Below, in pieces: positions 1 through 6,653 of a stretch of 6,653 bases of DNA (position 1 is its first letter; each line of letters opens with the position of its first letter). This DNA comes from a virus (taxonomy: Duplodnaviria > Heunggongvirae > Uroviricota > Caudoviricetes): IMG/VR virus record IMGVR_UViG_2541047174_000021; one strand, given 5' to 3'. The notes below the pieces were generated by a model. It searched no databases, had not been told where the DNA came from, and saw only the letters and a program-made list of their open reading frames with translations. Position numbers and translations under genes: made by a program.

Positions 1-13
1 CGTTGGTTAGCTA

Positions 14-232
14 TTAACGTGGGTATGTAATCATTCTGGCAATGCTTAATGCCGCTGCTTTTTCCAGATTGGTGATATCCTGCTCCAGAGCGGACAGATT
101 TTCAGCCTGCTTAGCCCTGGCTTCATTGGCCCATTTCAGATCCTGCGCTGCCTTAATTTTCTGGTGCATCCACTCATAAAGTTCATCATCGGTATAGTCT
201 GGCGCGATGATGACGGGGTCTCGTTTCTGCAT
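14..232 (-). CDS. Small prophage early-left-operon protein, 72 aa, probably coiled-coil (YdfC-like by size and position)
   Basis: ATG at 232 is preceded on the minus strand by AAGGAG about 6 nt upstream (plus 238-243, ctcctt). Same strand as and downstream of the dicA-like gene, as ydfA-ydfB-ydfC follow dicA in K-12 Qin; K-12 YdfC is also 72 aa (recalled, not aligned). Charged, heptad-like sequence. Confidence 0.6.
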   Translation of the reverse strand: MQKRDPVIIAPDYTDDELYEWMHQKIKAAQDLKWANEARAKQAENLSALEQDITNLEKAAALSIARMITYPR

Positions 233-304
233 GTCGGCTCCTTGTGGTTAGCGTTGCCTGCTTTTTAACCACGTCAGGCGAGGTGGTATCCTCTGAGGGG
301 TCTG

Positions 305-604
305 TTACTCGAGAGGAAATTGGTTATGAATACAATCAAGTTTTCTTGCCCAGAATGTGGTGGCTAAGTCTTTGACACATCCTTTAAGCCGCAGGGCTCT
401 GACAGTTTCGCGGGAGCCATCTGCAAAAATTGTGGTCACCTTGTAACTGAAGATGAGTCCTCGCAGTTCGATGACGAAATCGTTGACAATATCTTCGGTG
501 CACTCACCAGAGACTTTCTGAAGTAAAGGCGCATACCGCTTAGTTACCGCTCTGATAACTCTTACCTGTCCGGCAATGGCGCTGATATCAATATAAAGCG
601 CCAT
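305..604 (-). CDS. Hypothetical protein, 99 aa, unknown function, in leftward early operon
   Basis: ORF-track frame. It stays open upstream to a stop at 743-745, but no in-frame ATG/GTG/TTG lies upstream of the ATG at 604. Weak Shine-Dalgarno. Co-oriented between the repressor and the 72-aa gene. No family recognised. Confidence 0.4.
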   Translation of the reverse strand: MALYIDISAIAGQVRVIRAVTKRYAPLLQKVSGECTEDIVNDFVIELRGLIFSYKVTTIFADGSRETVRALRLKGCVKDLATTFWARKLDCIHNQFPLE

Positions 605-739
605 CGCTGTTTCTTTGCTGATCCCTGGACGCCTTCCATTCTGATGTTTGACTCGCCCACTGAGAAATCCTCTGCTTCCCCTTAACGCCGGGTAGCGGAA
701 CTGTTTGCTGAGAACACCGTGCGGTGTCTTGATGAGTAG

Positions 740-800
740 AATTTAGAATAGCCTAAGAGTTATGGTCAAGCTTTTTGTGTAGAAAAACCTAAGCTTCTTG
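740..800 (-). promoter_or_regulatory. Putative promoter with operator-like CTTAGG motifs for the leftward early operon
   Basis: On the minus strand: TTGACC (plus 764-769), an 18-nt spacer, then TAAATT (plus 740-745). Two CTTAGG motifs (plus 752-757 and 788-793) match the motif repeated in the dicA/dicC intergenic region. The minus-strand 13-mer CTTAGGTTTTTCT nearly equals CTTAGGTTTCTCT at 1301-1313. Confidence 0.25.
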
Positions 801-804
801 ATGT

Positions 805-838
805 AAAAAACACAAGTATTTGAAAGTTTGTGCTTTTT
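805..838 (-). terminator. Weak candidate intrinsic terminator downstream of the dicA-like gene
   Basis: Inverted repeat CACAA (811-815) / TTGTG (828-832) with a 12-nt loop. The plus-strand A-run at 805-810 gives a U-tract for the minus-strand transcript. Short stem, so low confidence. Confidence 0.25.
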
Positions 839-867
839 ATTACAGAGAGTTGCGAAAAAAAGGGGGG

Positions 868-1275
868 TTATTTATTTGCGCTTCTTTTGCGAGCTTTGAG
901 TAGTTCTTCAAAAAGTTTGTTGAAATTCTCAACTCGAGCACGCATCTCTGACAACAGAGCCTTTTGCTCTGACTCAGGCAGTGCGTCGAACAGTTGAAGC
1001 AACTCTTTTTGATCTTCTGTCAGATTGACTGGCTGATTATCTGGGATCGGTTCGCCTGGTTGCTTATCTTCATCTCCAAAAAGAAGCCAAGTCGGCGAGC
1101 ACTGAAGCGCCTGGCTCAGTGCGAATAATCTCTTCCCCGCTGGCTGTGTTTCATCTCTTTCCCATTGAGAAATTGTTACGTGAGCCACTTTGACCAGCTT
1201 ACCTAATGCGGCCTGAGACAGTTTTAATTTTTTTCGCCTGTATAAGAGGCGAGCACCGAAGGTTTCGTTTTTCAT
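868..1275 (-). CDS. dicA: DicA-like XRE-family HTH repressor (cI/c2 analogue), 135 aa
   Basis: 135 aa, the same length as E. coli DicA. Helix-turn-helix region (LSQAALGKLVKVAHVTISQWE) plus blocks I recall from DicA (LQCSPTWLLFGDEDKQP; EMRARVENFNKLFEELLKARKR). Divergent from a DicC-like gene. Confidence 0.85.
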   Translation of the reverse strand: MKNETFGARLLYRRKKLKLSQAALGKLVKVAHVTISQWERDETQPAGKRLFALSQALQCSPTWLLFGDEDKQPGEPIPDNQPVNLTEDQKELLQLFDALPESEQKALLSEMRARVENFNKLFEELLKARKRSANK

Positions 1276-1351
1276 ATTAGGTAATTCTAATTTTTCTTGA
1301 CTTAGGTTTCTCTACGATCTAGTTTCCTTAGGAAAATCTAAGGGTTTCGAT
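1276..1351. promoter_or_regulatory. Divergent promoter/operator region between dicA-like and dicC-like genes
   Basis: TTAGG motifs at 1277-1281, 1302-1306, 1327-1331 and inverted CTAAGG at 1338-1343. Inverted repeats ATTAG-N6-CTAAT (1276-1291) and CCTTAG-N6-CTAAGG (1326-1343). For dicC: -35 TTGACT (1297-1302), -10-like TAGTTT (1320-1325), SD AGGG about 7 nt before ATG 1352. For dicA: minus-strand TAGAAT (plus 1283-1288) only 8 nt before the ATG and no SD, suggesting a leaderless mRNA like lambda cI from PRM. Confidence 0.5.
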
Positions 1352-1579
1352 ATGTTGAAAATTGATGCTATAGCGTTTTTTGGCAGCAAAACAAAGCTTG
1401 CCAATGTCGCAGGAGTTAGGCTGGCAAGCGTTGCTGCATGGGGGGAACTGGTTCCTGAAGGTCGCGCGATGCGCCTGCAAGAGGCATCCGGCGGGGAACT
1501 TCAGTACGACCCCAAAGTTTATGACGAATATCGTAAGGCAAAGCGGGCGGGGCGGTTGAACAATGAAAATCACCACTGA
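1352..1579 (+). CDS. dicC: DicC-like Cro-type regulator, 75 aa
   Basis: Size, divergent arrangement with the repressor, and recalled similarity to E. coli DicC (GSKTKLA, VPEGRAMRLQEASGGELQYDPKVYDEYRK). Confidence 0.85.
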   Translation: MLKIDAIAFFGSKTKLANVAGVRLASVAAWGELVPEGRAMRLQEASGGELQYDPKVYDEYRKAKRAGRLNNENHH

Positions 1580-2114
1580 ACAGGTTTGTGAGGCTCTGGA
1601 TACCTGGGTATGCCGACCAGGAATGACACAGGAGCAGGCGACGATATTAATCACGGAAGCATTCTGGGCTCTGAAAGAACGCCCGAACATCGATGTTCAA
1701 CGCGTCACGTTTAATGATGGCGAGGTTGATCAACGGGCGCTGGGCGTTAACCGGGTGAAGATATTCGAACGCTGGAAAGCTATCGACACCAGAGATAAGC
1801 GTGACAAATTCACGGCGCTGATTCCGGCAATTATGGAGGCTATCCGGATCAGCGATTTCAGATTGTATTGTGAAATTACTGACGGAAAAAGCATTACGTA
1901 CATGATCGCCGGGTTAAACAAAGAATATGGCGATGTGGTGGAGTCCGGGCTGCTTTTTGCGGATCCAGTTGTTGTGGAACGTGAGACTGACGAGCTTATA
2001 GAAAAAGCTATTGCTTTCAAGCACGCGTATCGTCAGCAATACCAATATTACTTTGCAGATAAACAAATGTCTGCCAGGGGGGCGTATGAGTATCGATGCA
2101 CTACGATGGGCTAA
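1563..2114 (+). CDS. Prophage early protein at the cII position, 183 aa (possibly YdaT-family regulator)
   Basis: Immediately follows the Cro-like gene; its ATG overlaps the dicC 3' end by 17 nt and its 3' end overlaps the next gene's start. The YdaT-family assignment is a weak recollection (IPAI-containing segment), not verified. Confidence 0.55.
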   Translation: MKITTEQVCEALDTWVCRPGMTQEQATILITEAFWALKERPNIDVQRVTFNDGEVDQRALGVNRVKIFERWKAIDTRDKRDKFTALIPAIMEAIRISDFRLYCEITDGKSITYMIAGLNKEYGDVVESGLLFADPVVVERETDELIEKAIAFKHAYRQQYQYYFADKQMSARGAYEYRCTTMG

Positions 2115-3126
2115 AAAGGTGAAAACCGGCAGTTCATCCAGTAAGTCAGTATTGACCTGGCTTGCTGATATGTGCGGTGCCGATTTGTGTGCATACCCGT
2201 CTGTATCTGCACTGGCAGAAGTAACGGAACTGAACAAAAAGACTGTGCAGGACAGCTTACGACACCTGATGGAGATTGGGTTAATTGTTGATACCGGTGA
2301 GAGAAAAGGCAGAACAAAGCAAATTGTGGTGTACCGACTTATCGGTGTAGAAGAAAGTGTTGCCGAGCCTGAATACACCCAAAAACGGGAGTCTTTAAAG
2401 GTGGGTAAAATTGGTGCTGTTAATAAAAACAGTACCGAAAATGGTTATGTTTCAGCACAAAACAGACCCAAAAACAGAACTCTTAGCTGCATGGAAAATA
2501 ACCAAAGACACCCAAATTTTCCATCAAAGACACCCAAAAACGGATCACGGAACCCAAAGGAACCCAAAGATCTAAACCCCACACATAACGCACGCGAGAG
2601 TGCTCCGACCAGTGAGCAGGAAGTTTTGTCGTTACAGGCAGCCCCCCCTGTATTCCTGTATGGCCTGAGCGAACCCATCGGAAAATTCCCGATGAGCGAT
2701 AGCTGGTATCCGTCACGGGATTTTCGACGACGGGCTGCGTTGTGGGGGATGGCTTTGCCGGAGACAGAATTTACACCTGCTGAACTTGCCGCCTTCCGGG
2801 ACTACTGGGCAGCGGAGGGGAAAGTGTTTACGCAGATTCAGTGGGAGCAGAAATTCGCCCGTCACGTAAATCACGTCAGGGCGCAGGTTAAACCAGTCAG
2901 CAAAGGGGTAAACCATGCAGCAGCACCAGGTGGCACCGCATCACGGGCAGTTCAGGAAATTCGGGCAGCACGTGAGCAGTGGGAACGTGAAAACGGATTT
3001 ATCAGCGACGGAAACGGCCTGGAAGCTGTGGGAACTCATGGGGGTGGTTTATTCGAACCGCTGGATCCAGAAGAACGGGGCCGCACCTTCGAAGCTCTGG
3101 ATTGCACAGATTGGCGCGATGACTGA
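2086..3126 (+). CDS. Phage replication initiator / replisome organiser (lambda O-like role): N-terminal HTH, iteron-encoded linker, C-terminal DnaT-like domain
   Basis: The track ORF 2011-3126 starts at a TTG; I prefer ATG 2086 (MSIDALRWAKK), which has a G-rich SD (2074-2081). C-terminal segment GKFPMSDSWYPSRDFRRRAALWGMALPETEFTPAELAAFRDYWAAEGKVFTQIQWEQKFARH resembles the E. coli DnaT C-terminal domain (recalled). Low-complexity Pro/Lys/Asn linker is encoded by the repeat array. Confidence 0.8.
   Translation: MSIDALRWAKKVKTGSSSSKSVLTWLADMCGADLCAYPSVSALAEVTELNKKTVQDSLRHLMEIGLIVDTGERKGRTKQIVVYRLIGVEESVAEPEYTQKRESLKVGKIGAVNKNSTENGYVSAQNRPKNRTLSCMENNQRHPNFPSKTPKNGSRNPKEPKDLNPTHNARESAPTSEQEVLSLQAAPPVFLYGLSEPIGKFPMSDSWYPSRDFRRRAALWGMALPETEFTPAELAAFRDYWAAEGKVFTQIQWEQKFARHVNHVRAQVKPVSKGVNHAAAPGGTASRAVQEIRAAREQWERENGFISDGNGLEAVGTHGGGLFEPLDPEERGRTFEALDCTDWRDD
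2375..2570. repeat. Iteron-like direct repeats (candidate phage origin of replication) inside the initiator gene
   Basis: Exact 14-mer CAAAGACACCCAAA at 2503-2516 and 2525-2538 (22-bp spacing). Related copies ACACCCAAAAACGG 2375-2388, AGACCCAAAAACAG 2464-2477, AACCCAAAGG 2551-2560, AACCCAAAGA 2561-2570. An AT-rich stretch lies within the array at about 2401-2462. Confidence 0.45.
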
Positions 3127-3580
3127 GCAGCAAATCCGGCAGGTCTGCCGCCAGTGCATGGACCGCTGCCGGGCGGGTGAAACATGGCCTCCGGACCTGG
3201 CTGAGTTTGTGGCACTGATTTCGAAAAGCGGAGCCAATCCATTCGGTCTGACGGTGGATGCTGTGATGGAGGAGTACCGCCGCTGGCGCAATGAGTCCTG
3301 GCGATACGACGGAAGTGATAAGTACCCGTGGTCTCAGCCTGTGCTGTATCACATTTGCCTCGAGATGCGTTCAAAGGGGATTGAGCGCCAGATGACCGAA
3401 GGGGAATTAAAACGGCTTGCAGAACGGCAACTGACGAAATGGGCAAAGCATGTTAGTAACGGCCTGAGCGTTCCGCCAGTCCGGCGACAACTGGCGGCCC
3501 CCAAACGCCCGTCGGGGCCAACGCCAATTGAGTTGCTGAAACAGGAATATGAACGCCGGAAAGCGGCTGGTTTTGTTTGA
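2915..3580 (+). CDS. Lambda P-like replication protein (helicase loader), 221 aa from ATG 2915
   Basis: C-terminal half resembles lambda P (recalled), e.g. YPWSQPVLYHICLEMRSKG...LTEGELKRLAERQLTKWAKHV versus lambda YPWKSNAHYWLVTNLYQNMR...LTDAELRRKAADELVHMTARI. Best SD (AGGGG 2901-2905) precedes ATG 2915; alternative starts are ATG 3038 and ATG 3119. Start uncertain. Confidence 0.75.
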   Translation: MQQHQVAPHHGQFRKFGQHVSSGNVKTDLSATETAWKLWELMGVVYSNRWIQKNGAAPSKLWIAQIGAMTEQQIRQVCRQCMDRCRAGETWPPDLAEFVALISKSGANPFGLTVDAVMEEYRRWRNESWRYDGSDKYPWSQPVLYHICLEMRSKGIERQMTEGELKRLAERQLTKWAKHVSNGLSVPPVRRQLAAPKRPSGPTPIELLKQEYERRKAAGFV

Positions 3581-3613
3581 GTTGAGAAGTGATTTTTTAC
3601 CGGGAGGAAATTT

Positions 3614-4348
3614 ATGGAGACTGTTTTTGACGCACTGAAAGCGATGGGAAAAGCCACGTCGGTATAGCTGGCTGCGCGACTTGATATCAGTCGTGAAGAA
3701 GTACTGAACGAGCTGTGGGAACTGAAAAAGGCTGGCTTCGTTGATAAAAGCGTATACACCTGGCGTGTGGCTGATAACAACGTTCAGCAGGAACAGCCAG
3801 CGCCAGAAGAAACCACCACGGCAACAGAAGCGAAAATCTCAGAGTGCGATTTAACCGCGACGATTGAACAACGCGGACCACAAACGGCGGATGAACTGGC
3901 TACGCTGTTCGGTACAACATCCCGCAAAGTTGCTTCAACGCTGGCAATGGCAATCAGCAAAGGTCGTCTGATTCGCGTAAACCAGAACGGTAAAATTCGT
4001 TACTGCATACCAGGTGATAATTTACCAGCAGAGCCGAAAGTTGAATCGGTAGCGGAAACCGATGGTAAAGCCTTTCCTCAGCCAGCCGGTGTTGCGTTAC
4101 CGGTACAGAAAGATGCAACACAGGAAGATATTAAAACAGAAACTGTGGCGGACATTGTGCAGTCGCTGCCATCGTTTACTGCAACGCGAGAAGATGATTT
4201 GATTTTGCCATCGCTGCATATGGCAAATCGCGAACTGCGTAGGGCGAAGAATCATGTCCAGAAGTGGGAGCGAGTCTGCGCCGCGCTGCGGGAGCTGAAC
4301 AAGCACCGGGATATGGTTGCCGGGATTTGTCGGAAGTCCGGGCAATGA
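3614..4348 (+). pseudogene. Tandem winged-helix (HTH) phage protein, 244 codons, interrupted by an in-frame amber codon at 3665-3667 (Ren position after P)
   Basis: Strong SD GGAGG (3603-3607) before ATG 3614. Frame reads [48 protein letters not shown] and runs without further stops to TGA 4346-4348. The TAG sits where HTH motifs usually have Gln/Glu. The track ORF 3767-4348 is the same frame restarting at a GTG. A second HTH-like segment is [33 protein letters not shown]. Confidence 0.6.
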
Positions 4349-4509
4349 GCGGATGGTGCAGGCCTGAAATCATGATACTAACAATGAAGGTAAAATGCAT
4401 CGGCAGTCTGATTGGTCGTAGTGAGGCGGCGGTCAGGATGAAAGCCCAGGTTAAGGGAATAAGCCTGATTCTGCGGGGTGATTTTCACCAGTCAACAAAA
4501 TATCCGTAG
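4345..4509 (+). CDS. Short ORF (54 aa) translationally coupled to the preceding gene; possibly the disrupted 5' part of the following remnant
   Basis: Its ATG (4345-4347) overlaps the upstream TGA (4346-4348) in an ATGA arrangement. No recognisable family; product [24 protein letters not shown]... Confidence 0.25.
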
Positions 4510-4956
4510 CGCGATAACGGTCAAAAATTATGGCGCTGACACTTTTGTGCCACTGGAGATGACTGTACCTAAGTTCAGGGGAGAAGAACACGTCCGGTGG
4601 GATGGTCGGGCCAGATTTAAAGGGCAGGTCATGGCTCCAGCCTGTACGCTGGCAATGGAGGCTGCCTGGCGGGAAATTGATATGGGAACCACGCCACTCA
4701 GGGATTTACTGCCGGTCCAGAGAATAAATTCCTGTTACGGTTACACCACTGTGATCTTGCAAGTGCAGGAAAGTAGGTCTACACGGTAACGCGAGTGCGT
4801 GTAACTTTTGATGTCATTCCCGTAGAAACACCGGACAAATTTTCGCTGACAGGTCATGCAGAAGGTATAAATCTGCAGATTATGGACAATTACGGATATC
4901 CGGCAAGAGCCGGAAAAAGCATGCCGCCTCTAATTCTCAGTGGAAGATGGACTTGA
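4478..4956 (+). pseudogene. Fimbrial (chaperone-usher pilin) subunit-like remnant, frameshifted and 3'-truncated
   Basis: Frame 2 (4478-4789) has GRARFKGQVMAPACTLAMEAAWREIDMGTTPLRDL, matching the pilin N-terminal pattern F-x-G-x-V-x3-C...L-G-x-V (compare FimA GTVHFKGEVVNAACAV...VQLGQV, recalled), with a second Cys about 30 residues on. Frame 1 (4777-4956) continues with VTFDVIPVETPDKFSLTGHAEGINLQIMDNYG, like FimA GVQILDRTG. No in-frame signal peptide, at least one frameshift near 4775-4790, and it ends at the AT-rich boundary. Confidence 0.35.
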
Positions 4957-5015
4957 TTATACTCATTGCATTGTCAGAAATAGTTATCCATTAAAGGCTG
5001 GCTATTCCAAACAGG

Positions 5016-5043
5016 ATGTTGATTACAAAAATGTAATCAACAT
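5016..5043. promoter_or_regulatory. Perfect inverted repeat (12-bp arms, 4-bp spacer) upstream of the binding-protein gene; candidate operator
   Basis: ATGTTGATTACA (5016-5027), AAAA, TGTAATCAACAT (5032-5043), arms exactly reverse-complementary. Sits in the AT-rich region about 165 bp before ATG 5208. A perfect TATAAT is at 5070-5075. Confidence 0.3.
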
Positions 5044-5207
5044 GTAAGGTTTATACTCTTCAATATGCGTATAATTTTCCTTATTTTGTTGACTTTAAAT
5101 AACAAGCTATGCACGAGGTAAAGTCGGATAAGTTTATCTGGATGTAATATATATTATTTGTAGTGTTTATAACTTTATTTCATGATAACCAATAAAAGGA
5201 GTTTTTT

Positions 5208-5966
5208 ATGAGGAACATAATGGCAGGTTTTTTAATATTCCTGTCTTCTGCTGCTTATGCTGATATCAATCTGTATGGTCCTGGTGGCCCGCATACAGCC
5301 TTGCTTGATGCAGCCAAACTTTATGCCGAAAAAACAGGTATTATAGTGAACGTTCATTACGGCCCACAGAACAAATGGAATGAAGATGCCAAAAAAAATG
5401 CAGATATCTTGTTTGGCGCATCAGAACAATCTGCTCTGGCTATCATTCGGGACCATAAAGACAGCTTCAGTGAAAAAGATATTCAGCCTCTTTATCTGCG
5501 AAAAAGTATTTTACTGGTAAAGAAAGGTAATCCTAAAAATATCCGGAGTATTGACGACCTGACCAGACCTGGGATTGGCGTAATTGTTAATGATGGTGGT
5601 GGTACCAGTAATACATCAGGCACTGGCGTCTGGGAAGATATTGCCGGACGTAAAGGGAATATAGAAACTGTCGCCGCAATCCGAAAAAATATTATTTTAT
5701 ATGCGCCCAATAGCGGAACTGCACGTAAGGCTCTTGAGAATCAGCCTGGAGCAGATGTCTGGATAACCTGGGCTGACTGGGCAGCCAGTAATCCAGAAAT
5801 TGGTGATGTCGTGGAAATAGCGCCAGACTACGTGATATGGCGTGATATGAACATTACAGTACGTCAGGATGCAAATGATGAAACCCGTCGATTTGCAGAA
5901 TGGCTACAAACCGATGAAGCGGCGCCTGCATTCAAAAAATATGGCTGGACCAGGAAAGGCACTTGA
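5208..5966 (+). CDS. Secreted periplasmic substrate-binding protein, ModA-like (molybdate/tungstate-type fold), 252 aa, orphan
   Basis: SD AAGGAG (5195-5200) 7 nt before the ATG. Signal peptide MRNIMAGFLIFLSSAAYA, then DINLYG. Architecture parallels E. coli ModA (recalled): ADILFGASEQ versus ADLFISADQ, C-terminus AAPAFKKYGWT versus AAEIFKRYGFT. AT-rich codon usage unlike the phage module. No permease or ATPase gene nearby. Confidence 0.75.
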   Translation: MRNIMAGFLIFLSSAAYADINLYGPGGPHTALLDAAKLYAEKTGIIVNVHYGPQNKWNEDAKKNADILFGASEQSALAIIRDHKDSFSEKDIQPLYLRKSILLVKKGNPKNIRSIDDLTRPGIGVIVNDGGGTSNTSGTGVWEDIAGRKGNIETVAAIRKNIILYAPNSGTARKALENQPGADVWITWADWAASNPEIGDVVEIAPDYVIWRDMNITVRQDANDETRRFAEWLQTDEAAPAFKKYGWTRKGT

Positions 5967-5970
5967 CATC

Positions 5971-5998
5971 CTCGTCCTTCAGGACGTGGATTCTTTTT
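5971..5998 (+). terminator. Candidate intrinsic terminator after the binding-protein gene
   Basis: Imperfect hairpin CTCGTCC-TTCA-GGACGTG (5971-5988) followed by a T-rich tract, TTCTTTTT (5991-5998). Confidence 0.3.
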
Positions 5999-6085
5999 CC
6001 GGATGCCGCGCCAGCGGCATGTAGGGGCAGCTCACAAAACGGAAAAAATTGTACGCTAAGCCTCGCCAGGTGAACTGAATTCATT

Positions 6086-6109
6086 CCGATATGGGAATTC
6101 CCATATCGG
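6086..6109. repeat. Perfect 24-bp palindrome centred on GAATTC, upstream of the hok promoter region
   Basis: CCGATATGGGAATTCCCATATCGG equals its own reverse complement. A second GAATTC lies at 6077-6082. Confidence 0.6.
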
Positions 6110-6179
6110 GCGAAAACGGTTTGCTGTAACGGCAGAGTTAAGTAGGATTGCTGCGGGTGCTTGAGGCTATCTGCCTCGG

Positions 6180-6255
6180 GCATGAACACCAACGGCAGAT
6201 AGATAAAAGCCCCACCCGACTATAAATCGAAGTGAGGCCCCTATATGCTCGTCAC
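6180..6255 (-). ncRNA. sok: Putative Sok-like antisense RNA (approximate bounds)
   Basis: By analogy with hok/sok loci, the antisense RNA covers the mok SD/start (SD GAGG 6233-6236, ATG 6245). A minus-strand TTGACC -35 candidate is at plus 6283-6288; I found no convincing -10. Ends not determinable from sequence. Confidence 0.3.
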
Positions 6256-6457
6256 ATATAGATTGCCTCTTACGGACCGAAAGGTCAAGGAGAAGCAGGC
6301 TATGAAGCAGCAAAAGGCGATGTTAATCGCCCTGATCGTCATCTGTTTAATCGTCATAGTGACGGCACTGGTAACGAGGAAAGACCTCTGCGAGGTACGA
6401 ATCCGAACCGGCCAGACGGAGGTCGCTGTCTTCACAGCTTACGAACCTGAGGAGTAA
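6245..6457 (+). CDS. mok: mok-like reading frame (in-frame upstream extension overlapping hok), 70 aa
   Basis: ATG 6245 with SD GAGG (6233-6236). Reads MLVTYRLPLTDRKVKEKQA then the Hok sequence, the same layout I recall for chromosomal MokC/MokB. The region from about 6153 closely parallels the plasmid R1 hok mRNA leader (recalled). Confidence 0.5.
   Translation: MLVTYRLPLTDRKVKEKQAMKQQKAMLIALIVICLIVIVTALVTRKDLCEVRIRTGQTEVAVFTAYEPEE
6302..6457 (+). CDS. hokD: Hok-family type I toxin (HokD/RelF-like), 51 aa membrane peptide
   Basis: MKQQKAMLIALIVICLIVIVTALVTRKDLCEVRIRTGQTEVAVFTAYEPEE: Hok family signature, near-identical to my recollection of E. coli K-12 HokD (RelF). SD AAGGAG (6287-6292). 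Confidence 0.9.
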   Translation: MKQQKAMLIALIVICLIVIVTALVTRKDLCEVRIRTGQTEVAVFTAYEPEE

Positions 6458-6525
6458 GAGACCAGGCGGGGGAGAAATCCCTCGCCACCTCTGATGTGTC
6501 AGGCATCCTCAACGCACCCGCACTT

Positions 6526-6552
6526 AACCCGCTTCGGCGGGTTTTGTTTTTT
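6526..6552 (+). terminator. Rho-independent terminator of the hok transcript
   Basis: Stem AACCCGC (6526-6532), UUCG tetraloop (6533-6536), GCGGGTT (6537-6543), then TTGTTTTTT. Confidence 0.7.
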
Positions 6553-6653
6553 CTGGTCGTTCTGGTTTACAATCCATCCGTCAGCCTGAACAACTGGCAC
6601 CTGCTGCGCCAGCAGAGAAAACAGATGGCGCACGATACCAAATTTTACAATTC

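Follow-up and report, generated by a model that had tools for sequence, protein, structure and literature searches.

Proteins of the DUF1627 family (PF07789; PHROG 630), which are encoded by the gene named ydaW in Rac-type phages, are found very widely among enterobacterial prophages; 2727 homologues were recovered from the 5.8 billion proteins searched, and of these the 120 best cluster representatives were aligned for the present analysis. PHROG 630 itself bears the label 'unknown function'. According to previous studies, Rac ydaW came out of an overexpression screen as a blocker of retron-Sen2 RcaT toxicity (bioRxiv 10.1101/2020.06.22.160242), and the prophage sRNAs PasA and PasC have DUF1627 genes as conserved neighbours (bioRxiv 10.64898/2026.05.13.724894). 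As for the prophages that carry such genes, those of the PPompW type are integrated at ompW and occur widely in LEE-positive E. coli, among them O157:H7, a serotype to which the O55:H7 lineage gave rise (bioRxiv 10.1101/2020.11.04.367953).

The stretch of DNA analysed here (hereafter the window; 6,653 nucleotides of IMG/VR record IMGVR_UViG_2541047174_000021) matches O157:H7 at 99.9% identity over positions 1-6551, and its sequence identifies it as a lambdoid prophage of E. coli O157:H7 that belongs to the PPompW type and carries paa, hokD and ydfC. In the RefSeq annotation of O157:H7 strain TR01, the genes follow one another in the order ydfC, cI-like HTH repressor, Cro/CI regulator, YdaT-family gene, DnaT-domain replication protein, replication protein P, DUF1627 protein, 54-aa hypothetical protein, fimbrial pseudogene, paa and hokD. 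The closest free-standing phage records are 'PPompW' prophages of O145:H28, and the window prophage probably corresponds to Sakai Sp9 and to CP-933O (OI-57) of EDL933. The DUF1627 gene of the window and its immediate surroundings comprise the following features:

2915..3580, + strand: lambda-P-family replication gene (PF06992 Phage_lambda_P, E 1.3e-16), called 'replication protein P' by PGAP with its start at 3119
3603..3607, + strand: Shine-Dalgarno GGAGG, read in the sequence, 6 nt before the native ATG and kept in phage orthologues
3614..3664, + strand: native ATG and 17 codons (METVFDALKAMGKATSV) before the stop, from translation
3665..3667, + strand: amber codon TAG (E18*), read as derived from GAG by G-to-T at 3665
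3668..4348, + strand: rest of the gene (226 codons and TGA), called by PGAP as CDS WP_077744273.1 with its start at CTG 3668
4345..4509, + strand: 54-codon ORF, whose ATG (4345-4347) overlaps the DUF1627 stop as ATGA; PGAP hypothetical protein WP_001505071.1

Reading of the sequence from the ATG at 3614-3616 to the TGA at 4346-4348 gives 244 sense positions with a sole interruption, the TAG at codon 18. The strong Shine-Dalgarno sequence, the ATG and the frame open to 4348 apart from this codon are thus all in the sequence, as the first-pass annotation had described, and the Phage_lambda_P match of the upstream gene bears out its statement that the gene sits directly after P. The predicted anti-SD duplex amounts to -10.3 kcal/mol at ATG 3614, and all later in-frame starts reach -6.1 or weaker; among the downstream in-frame ATG, GTG, TTG and CTG codons that were scored, no usable SD was found and no internal ribosome-binding site was detected.

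The orthologues point to the same start. In PPompW, Rac-SA53 and pPE4, the annotated CDS begins at the ATG of the window gene and has no interruption; that of 666R9, annotated from an upstream start, is longer and includes the shared ATG. At the family level, 113 of the 120 representatives share this Met start, residues 1-51 form the best-conserved stretch, and residues 1-17 are near-invariant. Since the N-terminal residues are the best conserved in the family and the phage orthologue is uninterrupted from the same ATG, the first 17 codons are, on the alignments, truly coding rather than open by chance, and their SD is genuine. A downstream start in the orthologues, with an unconserved N-terminus, was consequently rejected. 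As an observation apart, the pPE4 record (PP818812.1, 'Actinobacillus phage vB_Apl-pPE4') shows ~95% DNA identity to the E. coli prophage region, which is surprising for a Pasteurellaceae host (Actinobacillus pleuropneumoniae) and may point to contamination or to a phage that came from E. coli.

Base 3665, which is T in the window, is G in PPompW_132418, Rac-SA53, pPE4, 666R9 and O55:H7 CB9615, and the aligned codon 18 reads GAG in PPompW and GAA in Rac-SA53, pPE4 and 666R9. The PPompW_132418 orthologue is a 244-codon CDS with the same ATG and a DNA identity of 99.6%, and base 3665 is its sole difference from the window over the 5' 200 nt of the gene. As well, the corresponding prophage region of O55:H7 CB9615 is 99.85% identical to the window over 6551 nt, with 10 differing positions (eight substitutions and two single-base indels); its DUF1627 CDS is intact, with 244 codons, and the only difference within the gene is G or T at 3665. 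Glu stands at position 18 in every family representative that covers it (117/117, of the 120 best), and a stop at this codon was found in none of the 117. Because Glu is present in the orthologues and the family representatives and G in O55:H7 CB9615, the ancestral codon is reconstructed as GAG (Glu) and the change as a G-to-T transversion at 3665. The first-pass annotation had expected Gln or Glu at this codon, and Glu is indeed what the orthologues carry; its derivation of the TAG from CAG by a C-to-T change is rejected, GAG or GAA being present in every orthologue compared.

A 69-mer centred on the TAG occurs exactly in 293 complete E. coli genome records, and among the matches listed all carriers with a serotype label are O157 or O157:H7, from several countries and sources. 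The GAG version of the 69-mer is exact in 311 records, including those of O55:H7 (strains CB9615 and RM12579), O145:H28, O26:H11, O111, O103 and O121, and none of the 60 listed of these 311 carriers is labelled O157. TAG therefore appears, among the matches listed, to be confined to the O157 allele, and the pattern of TAG in O157 and GAG in O55:H7 and other serotypes argues for a single mutation after the O55:H7/O157:H7 split, followed by clonal inheritance. If the source record were wrong at this base through sequencing or assembly, an origin that had been offered for the stop, a single-base difference from close relatives would likewise result, and nothing else speaks for such an error. It would have to be reconciled with the identical TAG 69-mer in 293 independently sequenced complete genomes, from different laboratories, countries and platforms, and with the 100% identity of 1101 nt around the TAG in at least 30 O157:H7 genomes; we consider such an error next to impossible and rejected it. 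A literature search for a description of the E18* mutation found none.

What the stop interrupts can be described from the family. The stop-repaired protein matches Pfam DUF1627 with an E-value of 7.8e-93 and 308.8 bits, a score far above the gathering threshold (28.1). A database protein two substitutions away from the repaired window protein (P0001) matches phrog_630 over residues 1-242 of 244 (E 2.5e-121), and through it the full-length PHROG 630/YdaW architecture, including the N-terminal winged helix, is recovered; in the window this match is interrupted by the TAG. An AlphaFold2 (AF2) model built on 72 family members, together with the Pfam match, divides the protein as follows:

3614..3769, + strand: winged-helix domain 1, codons 1-52 (AF2 pLDDT 81-87, H-E-H-H-E topology)
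residues 54-72: disordered linker (AF2 pLDDT below 50)
3836..4009, + strand: winged-helix domain 2, codons 75-132 (AF2 pLDDT 82-85)
3863..4321, + strand: Pfam DUF1627 (PF07789) match, codons 84-236 (profile positions 1-153 of 155)
residues 136-196: second disordered linker (AF2 pLDDT below 50)
4190..4342, + strand: long C-terminal alpha-helix, codons 193-243 (AF2 pLDDT 78-92)

In the model, winged-helix domain 1 includes helix 4-11, strand 13-15, helix 16-23 and recognition helix 27-40, and winged-helix domain 2 of helices 77-87, 92-99 and 103-115 with a hairpin at 120-131. The predicted topology of three helices and a hairpin is seen twice, in line with the two winged-helix-like segments that had been proposed from the sequence, and residue 18 is modelled in helix 16-23 (helix 2), ahead of the recognition helix, which agrees with the proposed position of the TAG inside an HTH motif. 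Codons 1-17 account for helix 1 of domain 1 and for the first turn of its helix 2. As residue 18 falls in helix 2, a product without residues 1-18 would lose helix 1 and the start of helix 2, and the TAG is thus predicted to destroy winged-helix domain 1. The C-terminal helix (193-243) is likely an oligomerisation element, and the intact protein would be a DNA-binding, probably dimeric, accessory protein of the early region.

Among the family models, HTH_20 matched residues 4-46 below threshold (24.6 bits, cut-off 27), as did models of the MarR, TrmB and ArsR types over the same residues; the NCBIfam ArsR/SmtB model scored 23.5 with a cut-off of 55, and a weak FeoC-like match covered residues 80-126. 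No curated HTH family model in Pfam or NCBIfam was matched significantly. The Foldseek search against the PDB returned winged-helix structures with probabilities of 0.96-1.0 but E-values of 2.6e-3 or worse, and a profile search of PDB sequences found nothing below E 0.46. No function was obtained from the PHROG and NCBIfam scans, and an assignment of function from the fold was rejected, since AF2 and Foldseek gave generic winged-helix or ScpB-like matches with E above 1e-3.

Two side observations concern how the family is recorded in databases. Fragments of P0001 are matched by separate PHROG families, namely phrog_16668 (residues 1-47), phrog_11856 (88-244) and phrog_29124 (178-241), so that, from these sequence matches, DUF1627 proteins are evidently often annotated as split or truncated ORFs. 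In addition, the Pfam DUF1627 boundary at residue 84 falls inside winged-helix domain 2 of the AF2 model, and this boundary may reflect truncated ORF calls rather than a structural domain.

With a sense codon at position 18 and conserved upstream coding in the orthologues (117/117 Glu), and with the stop present as a real allele in the 293 complete genome records, the window copy is probably a pseudogene in O157:H7. E18* (GAG to TAG) is, with high confidence, a recent, clonal and lineage-specific loss-of-function nonsense mutation in a dispensable DUF1627/YdaW prophage gene of O157:H7; of the three origins offered in the first-pass annotation, a recent nonsense mutation is the one that the evidence favours. 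The GAG codon would have changed to TAG after O157:H7 and O55:H7 had separated and would have been inherited clonally since then. In O157:H7, initiation would still take place at the strong SD and ATG, and the ribosomes would stop at the TAG after a peptide of 17 residues; the frame behind this stop, having no ribosome-binding site, would give little or no protein; judged from the sequence, 3668..4348 is probably untranslated or barely translated. As the gene is dispensable for the lysogen, the spread of the allele would most likely be due to drift or hitch-hiking. The gene remainder carries no second lesion, and the youth of O157:H7 would explain why decay has gone no further; the remaining frame being intact, the gene may retain some residual function.

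The loss would also touch the neighbouring 54-codon ORF (4345-4509), in which a Pfam scan found no family. This ORF was probably coupled formerly to the DUF1627 gene through the ATGA overlap and is now uncoupled, as translational coupling would be lost when ribosomes terminate at the upstream TAG, and the TAG may in addition have a polarity effect on it.

Since the frame after the TAG is intact, a truncated protein might be made by reinitiation at CTG 3668 or GTG 3767. Such a product would be without winged-helix domain 1 and would keep domain 2 and the C-terminal helix, and its function would be reduced or altered, for example as a dominant-negative partner of DUF1627 paralogues from co-resident prophages. 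Paralogues do exist, as the conserved N-terminal 69-mer is often present twice in an O157:H7 genome (one to two places per record), and the stop precedes the whole of the Pfam DUF1627 domain (residues 84-236). It also speaks for reinitiation that PGAP calls a 226-aa CDS from CTG 3668 and that fragments such as those of phrog_11856 and phrog_16668 form PHROGs of their own. However, the anti-SD duplexes of -3.0 kcal/mol at CTG 3668 and -0.9 at GTG 3767 compare poorly with -10.3 kcal/mol at the native ATG, and in E. coli translation starts very poorly at CTG. Moreover, PGAP places starts of this kind by protein homology, which is no proof that translation begins there, and none of the 120 representatives naturally starts at the CTG site, except P0099, which has the same 5' allele. 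Reinitiation is therefore held to be unlikely, and the 226-aa RefSeq CDS with its CTG start is most likely an annotation device, in which a homology-driven start was placed right after the TAG.

The exception just mentioned deserves a brief description. P0099 is a protein of 231 aa that starts with 'MAARLDIS...', the same post-TAG start as in the O157 allele, and its C-terminus differs and is Rac-like. This sequence suggests that, in some genome, the TAG allele has recombined with a DUF1627 paralogue.

Alternatively, the TAG could be decoded by a suppressor tRNA or by near-cognate readthrough, in which case the stop would be an expression throttle and not a knock-out. The base after the stop is C (TAGC), and in E. 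coli a UAG followed by C terminates translation comparatively weakly; the frame downstream is also intact. A programmed event should leave a conserved stop, yet TAG occurs in 0/117 family representatives, all of which carry Glu, and this gives no indication that a recoding site is conserved. A tRNA scan of the window found no tRNA gene, so a suppressor encoded within it was rejected. The suppressor survey covered the supE44-type glnV allele, of which an exact copy is present in only 155 of 5426 genomes, a number below that of the TAG carriers (293). The 60 listed of these 155 carriers are K-12 or other laboratory-type strains and none of them is labelled O157, which gives no support to supE as a trait of the O157 lineage. 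Amber suppression as a mode of expression, another origin proposed from the sequence alone, thus finds neither a tRNA in the window, nor supE-type glnV in O157-labelled genomes among those 60, nor a conserved TAG, and we regard readthrough in either form as very unlikely.

An equally improbable extension of these two alternatives is that the amber codon is not neutral and that a low-level product, truncated through reinitiation or full-length through readthrough at UAG-C, with winged-helix domain 1 absent or under-dosed, acts via its C-terminal helix on co-resident DUF1627 paralogues and so modulates prophage-prophage interactions or anti-defence. The anti-defence part of this idea would be in line with the retron-blocking result for Rac ydaW. 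A loss-of-function nonsense mutation remains our preferred reading of E18*.

The first-pass annotation had linked the TAG to prophage decay. This holds insofar as one accessory gene is lost, but only nine other positions differ between the window and O55:H7 over ~6.5 kb. Other lesions in the neighbourhood were considered as signs of general decay and give it little support, the TR01 ydaT frameshift being absent from the window and the fimbrial pseudogene being already present in O55:H7. In the window, the YdaT-family gene (1563-2114; 183 codons, PF06254) is intact, and in TR01 it is frameshifted by the loss of the A at window position 1649, a strain-level decay of the same prophage. The fimbrial-protein pseudogene (4514-5047), which lies just upstream of paa (5208-5966, AcfC-family adhesin), has a frameshift and an internal stop in both O157:H7 TR01 and O55:H7 CB9615 according to RefSeq; as the lesion is already in CB9615, this pseudogene is older than the TAG.

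Several further features of the window are independent of the DUF1627 gene. A hok/sok type I toxin-antitoxin system is present, with sok at 6155-6304 (Rfam RF01794, 103.9 bits) and a hok-type ORF at 6245-6457, and the RefSeq hokD adjoins it; the Rfam scan of the window found sok only, with nothing at the coordinates of the DUF1627 gene. The last ~100 bases (6552-6653) are not matched by the prophage locus of O157:H7 and O55:H7, which elsewhere is 99.9% identical. For 6300-6653, a match of 99.4% was found at another hokD locus, situated elsewhere in O55:H7 and other genomes, and none of the matches listed is 100%. These alignments look like a mosaic or recombination junction immediately after hokD, and the exact arrangement around 6552-6653 was seen in none of the complete genomes listed. 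At the other end, positions 140, 147 and 149, within ydfC (minus strand, 14-232), carry substitutions relative to TR01, CB9615 and PPompW_132418 alike; these three substitutions within 10 bases seem specific to the source of the window and are possibly a micro-recombination tract.

The stop codon of the window is, in summary, an ordinary nonsense mutation, and nothing points to recoding. The TAG allele is already in hundreds of public genomes and is annotated there as a truncated CDS, and RefSeq WP_077744273.1 (226 aa, CTG start) most likely corresponds to a pseudogene tail rather than to a genuine protein. In O157:H7 the TAG amounts to the loss of one accessory prophage gene, which is decay in a weak sense only, and it has no bearing on the function of the DUF1627/YdaW family. 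It adds one dated point mutation (E18*, in the paa-carrying prophage) to the differences between O157:H7 and O55:H7, which matters little, and base 3665 could potentially be used as a simple marker of the O157 lineage.

Compared with known systems, the slot of the gene recalls phage lambda, in which ren follows P: both genes lie immediately downstream of a lambda-P-family gene. The analogy is positional only. The window gene has 244 aa, unlike lambda Ren with about 96 aa, and no Ren-like family was matched in the Pfam, PHROG and NCBIfam scans, in which only DUF1627 and generic winged-helix families appeared. In structure, the top Foldseek matches in the PDB were ScpB (3w6j, 2z99), regulators of the ArsR/MarR type, FeoC and AspA, which share domains of three helices plus a hairpin; all of them are weak, with E above 1e-3 and a query TM-score of 0.26 or below, and the long C-terminal helix of the window protein and its pair of disordered linkers are without counterpart in them.

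The DUF1627/YdaW/PHROG 630 family itself is far closer. As in Rac-SA53 (ydaU-ydaV-ydaW), pPE4, 666R9 and PPompW, the window gene is positioned directly after the replication genes, whereas its copy has an amber codon at residue 18, where intact members have Glu. The nearest relatives are the alleles of the same prophage region in O55:H7 CB9615 (WP_000450692.1) and in the O145:H28 PPompW prophages (e.g., BCI49274.1), which have the same start, SD and stop as the window gene, with 99.8% identity over 6.5 kb. The CB9615 allele codes identically except for base 3665, and both alleles carry GAG (Glu18) where the window has TAG.
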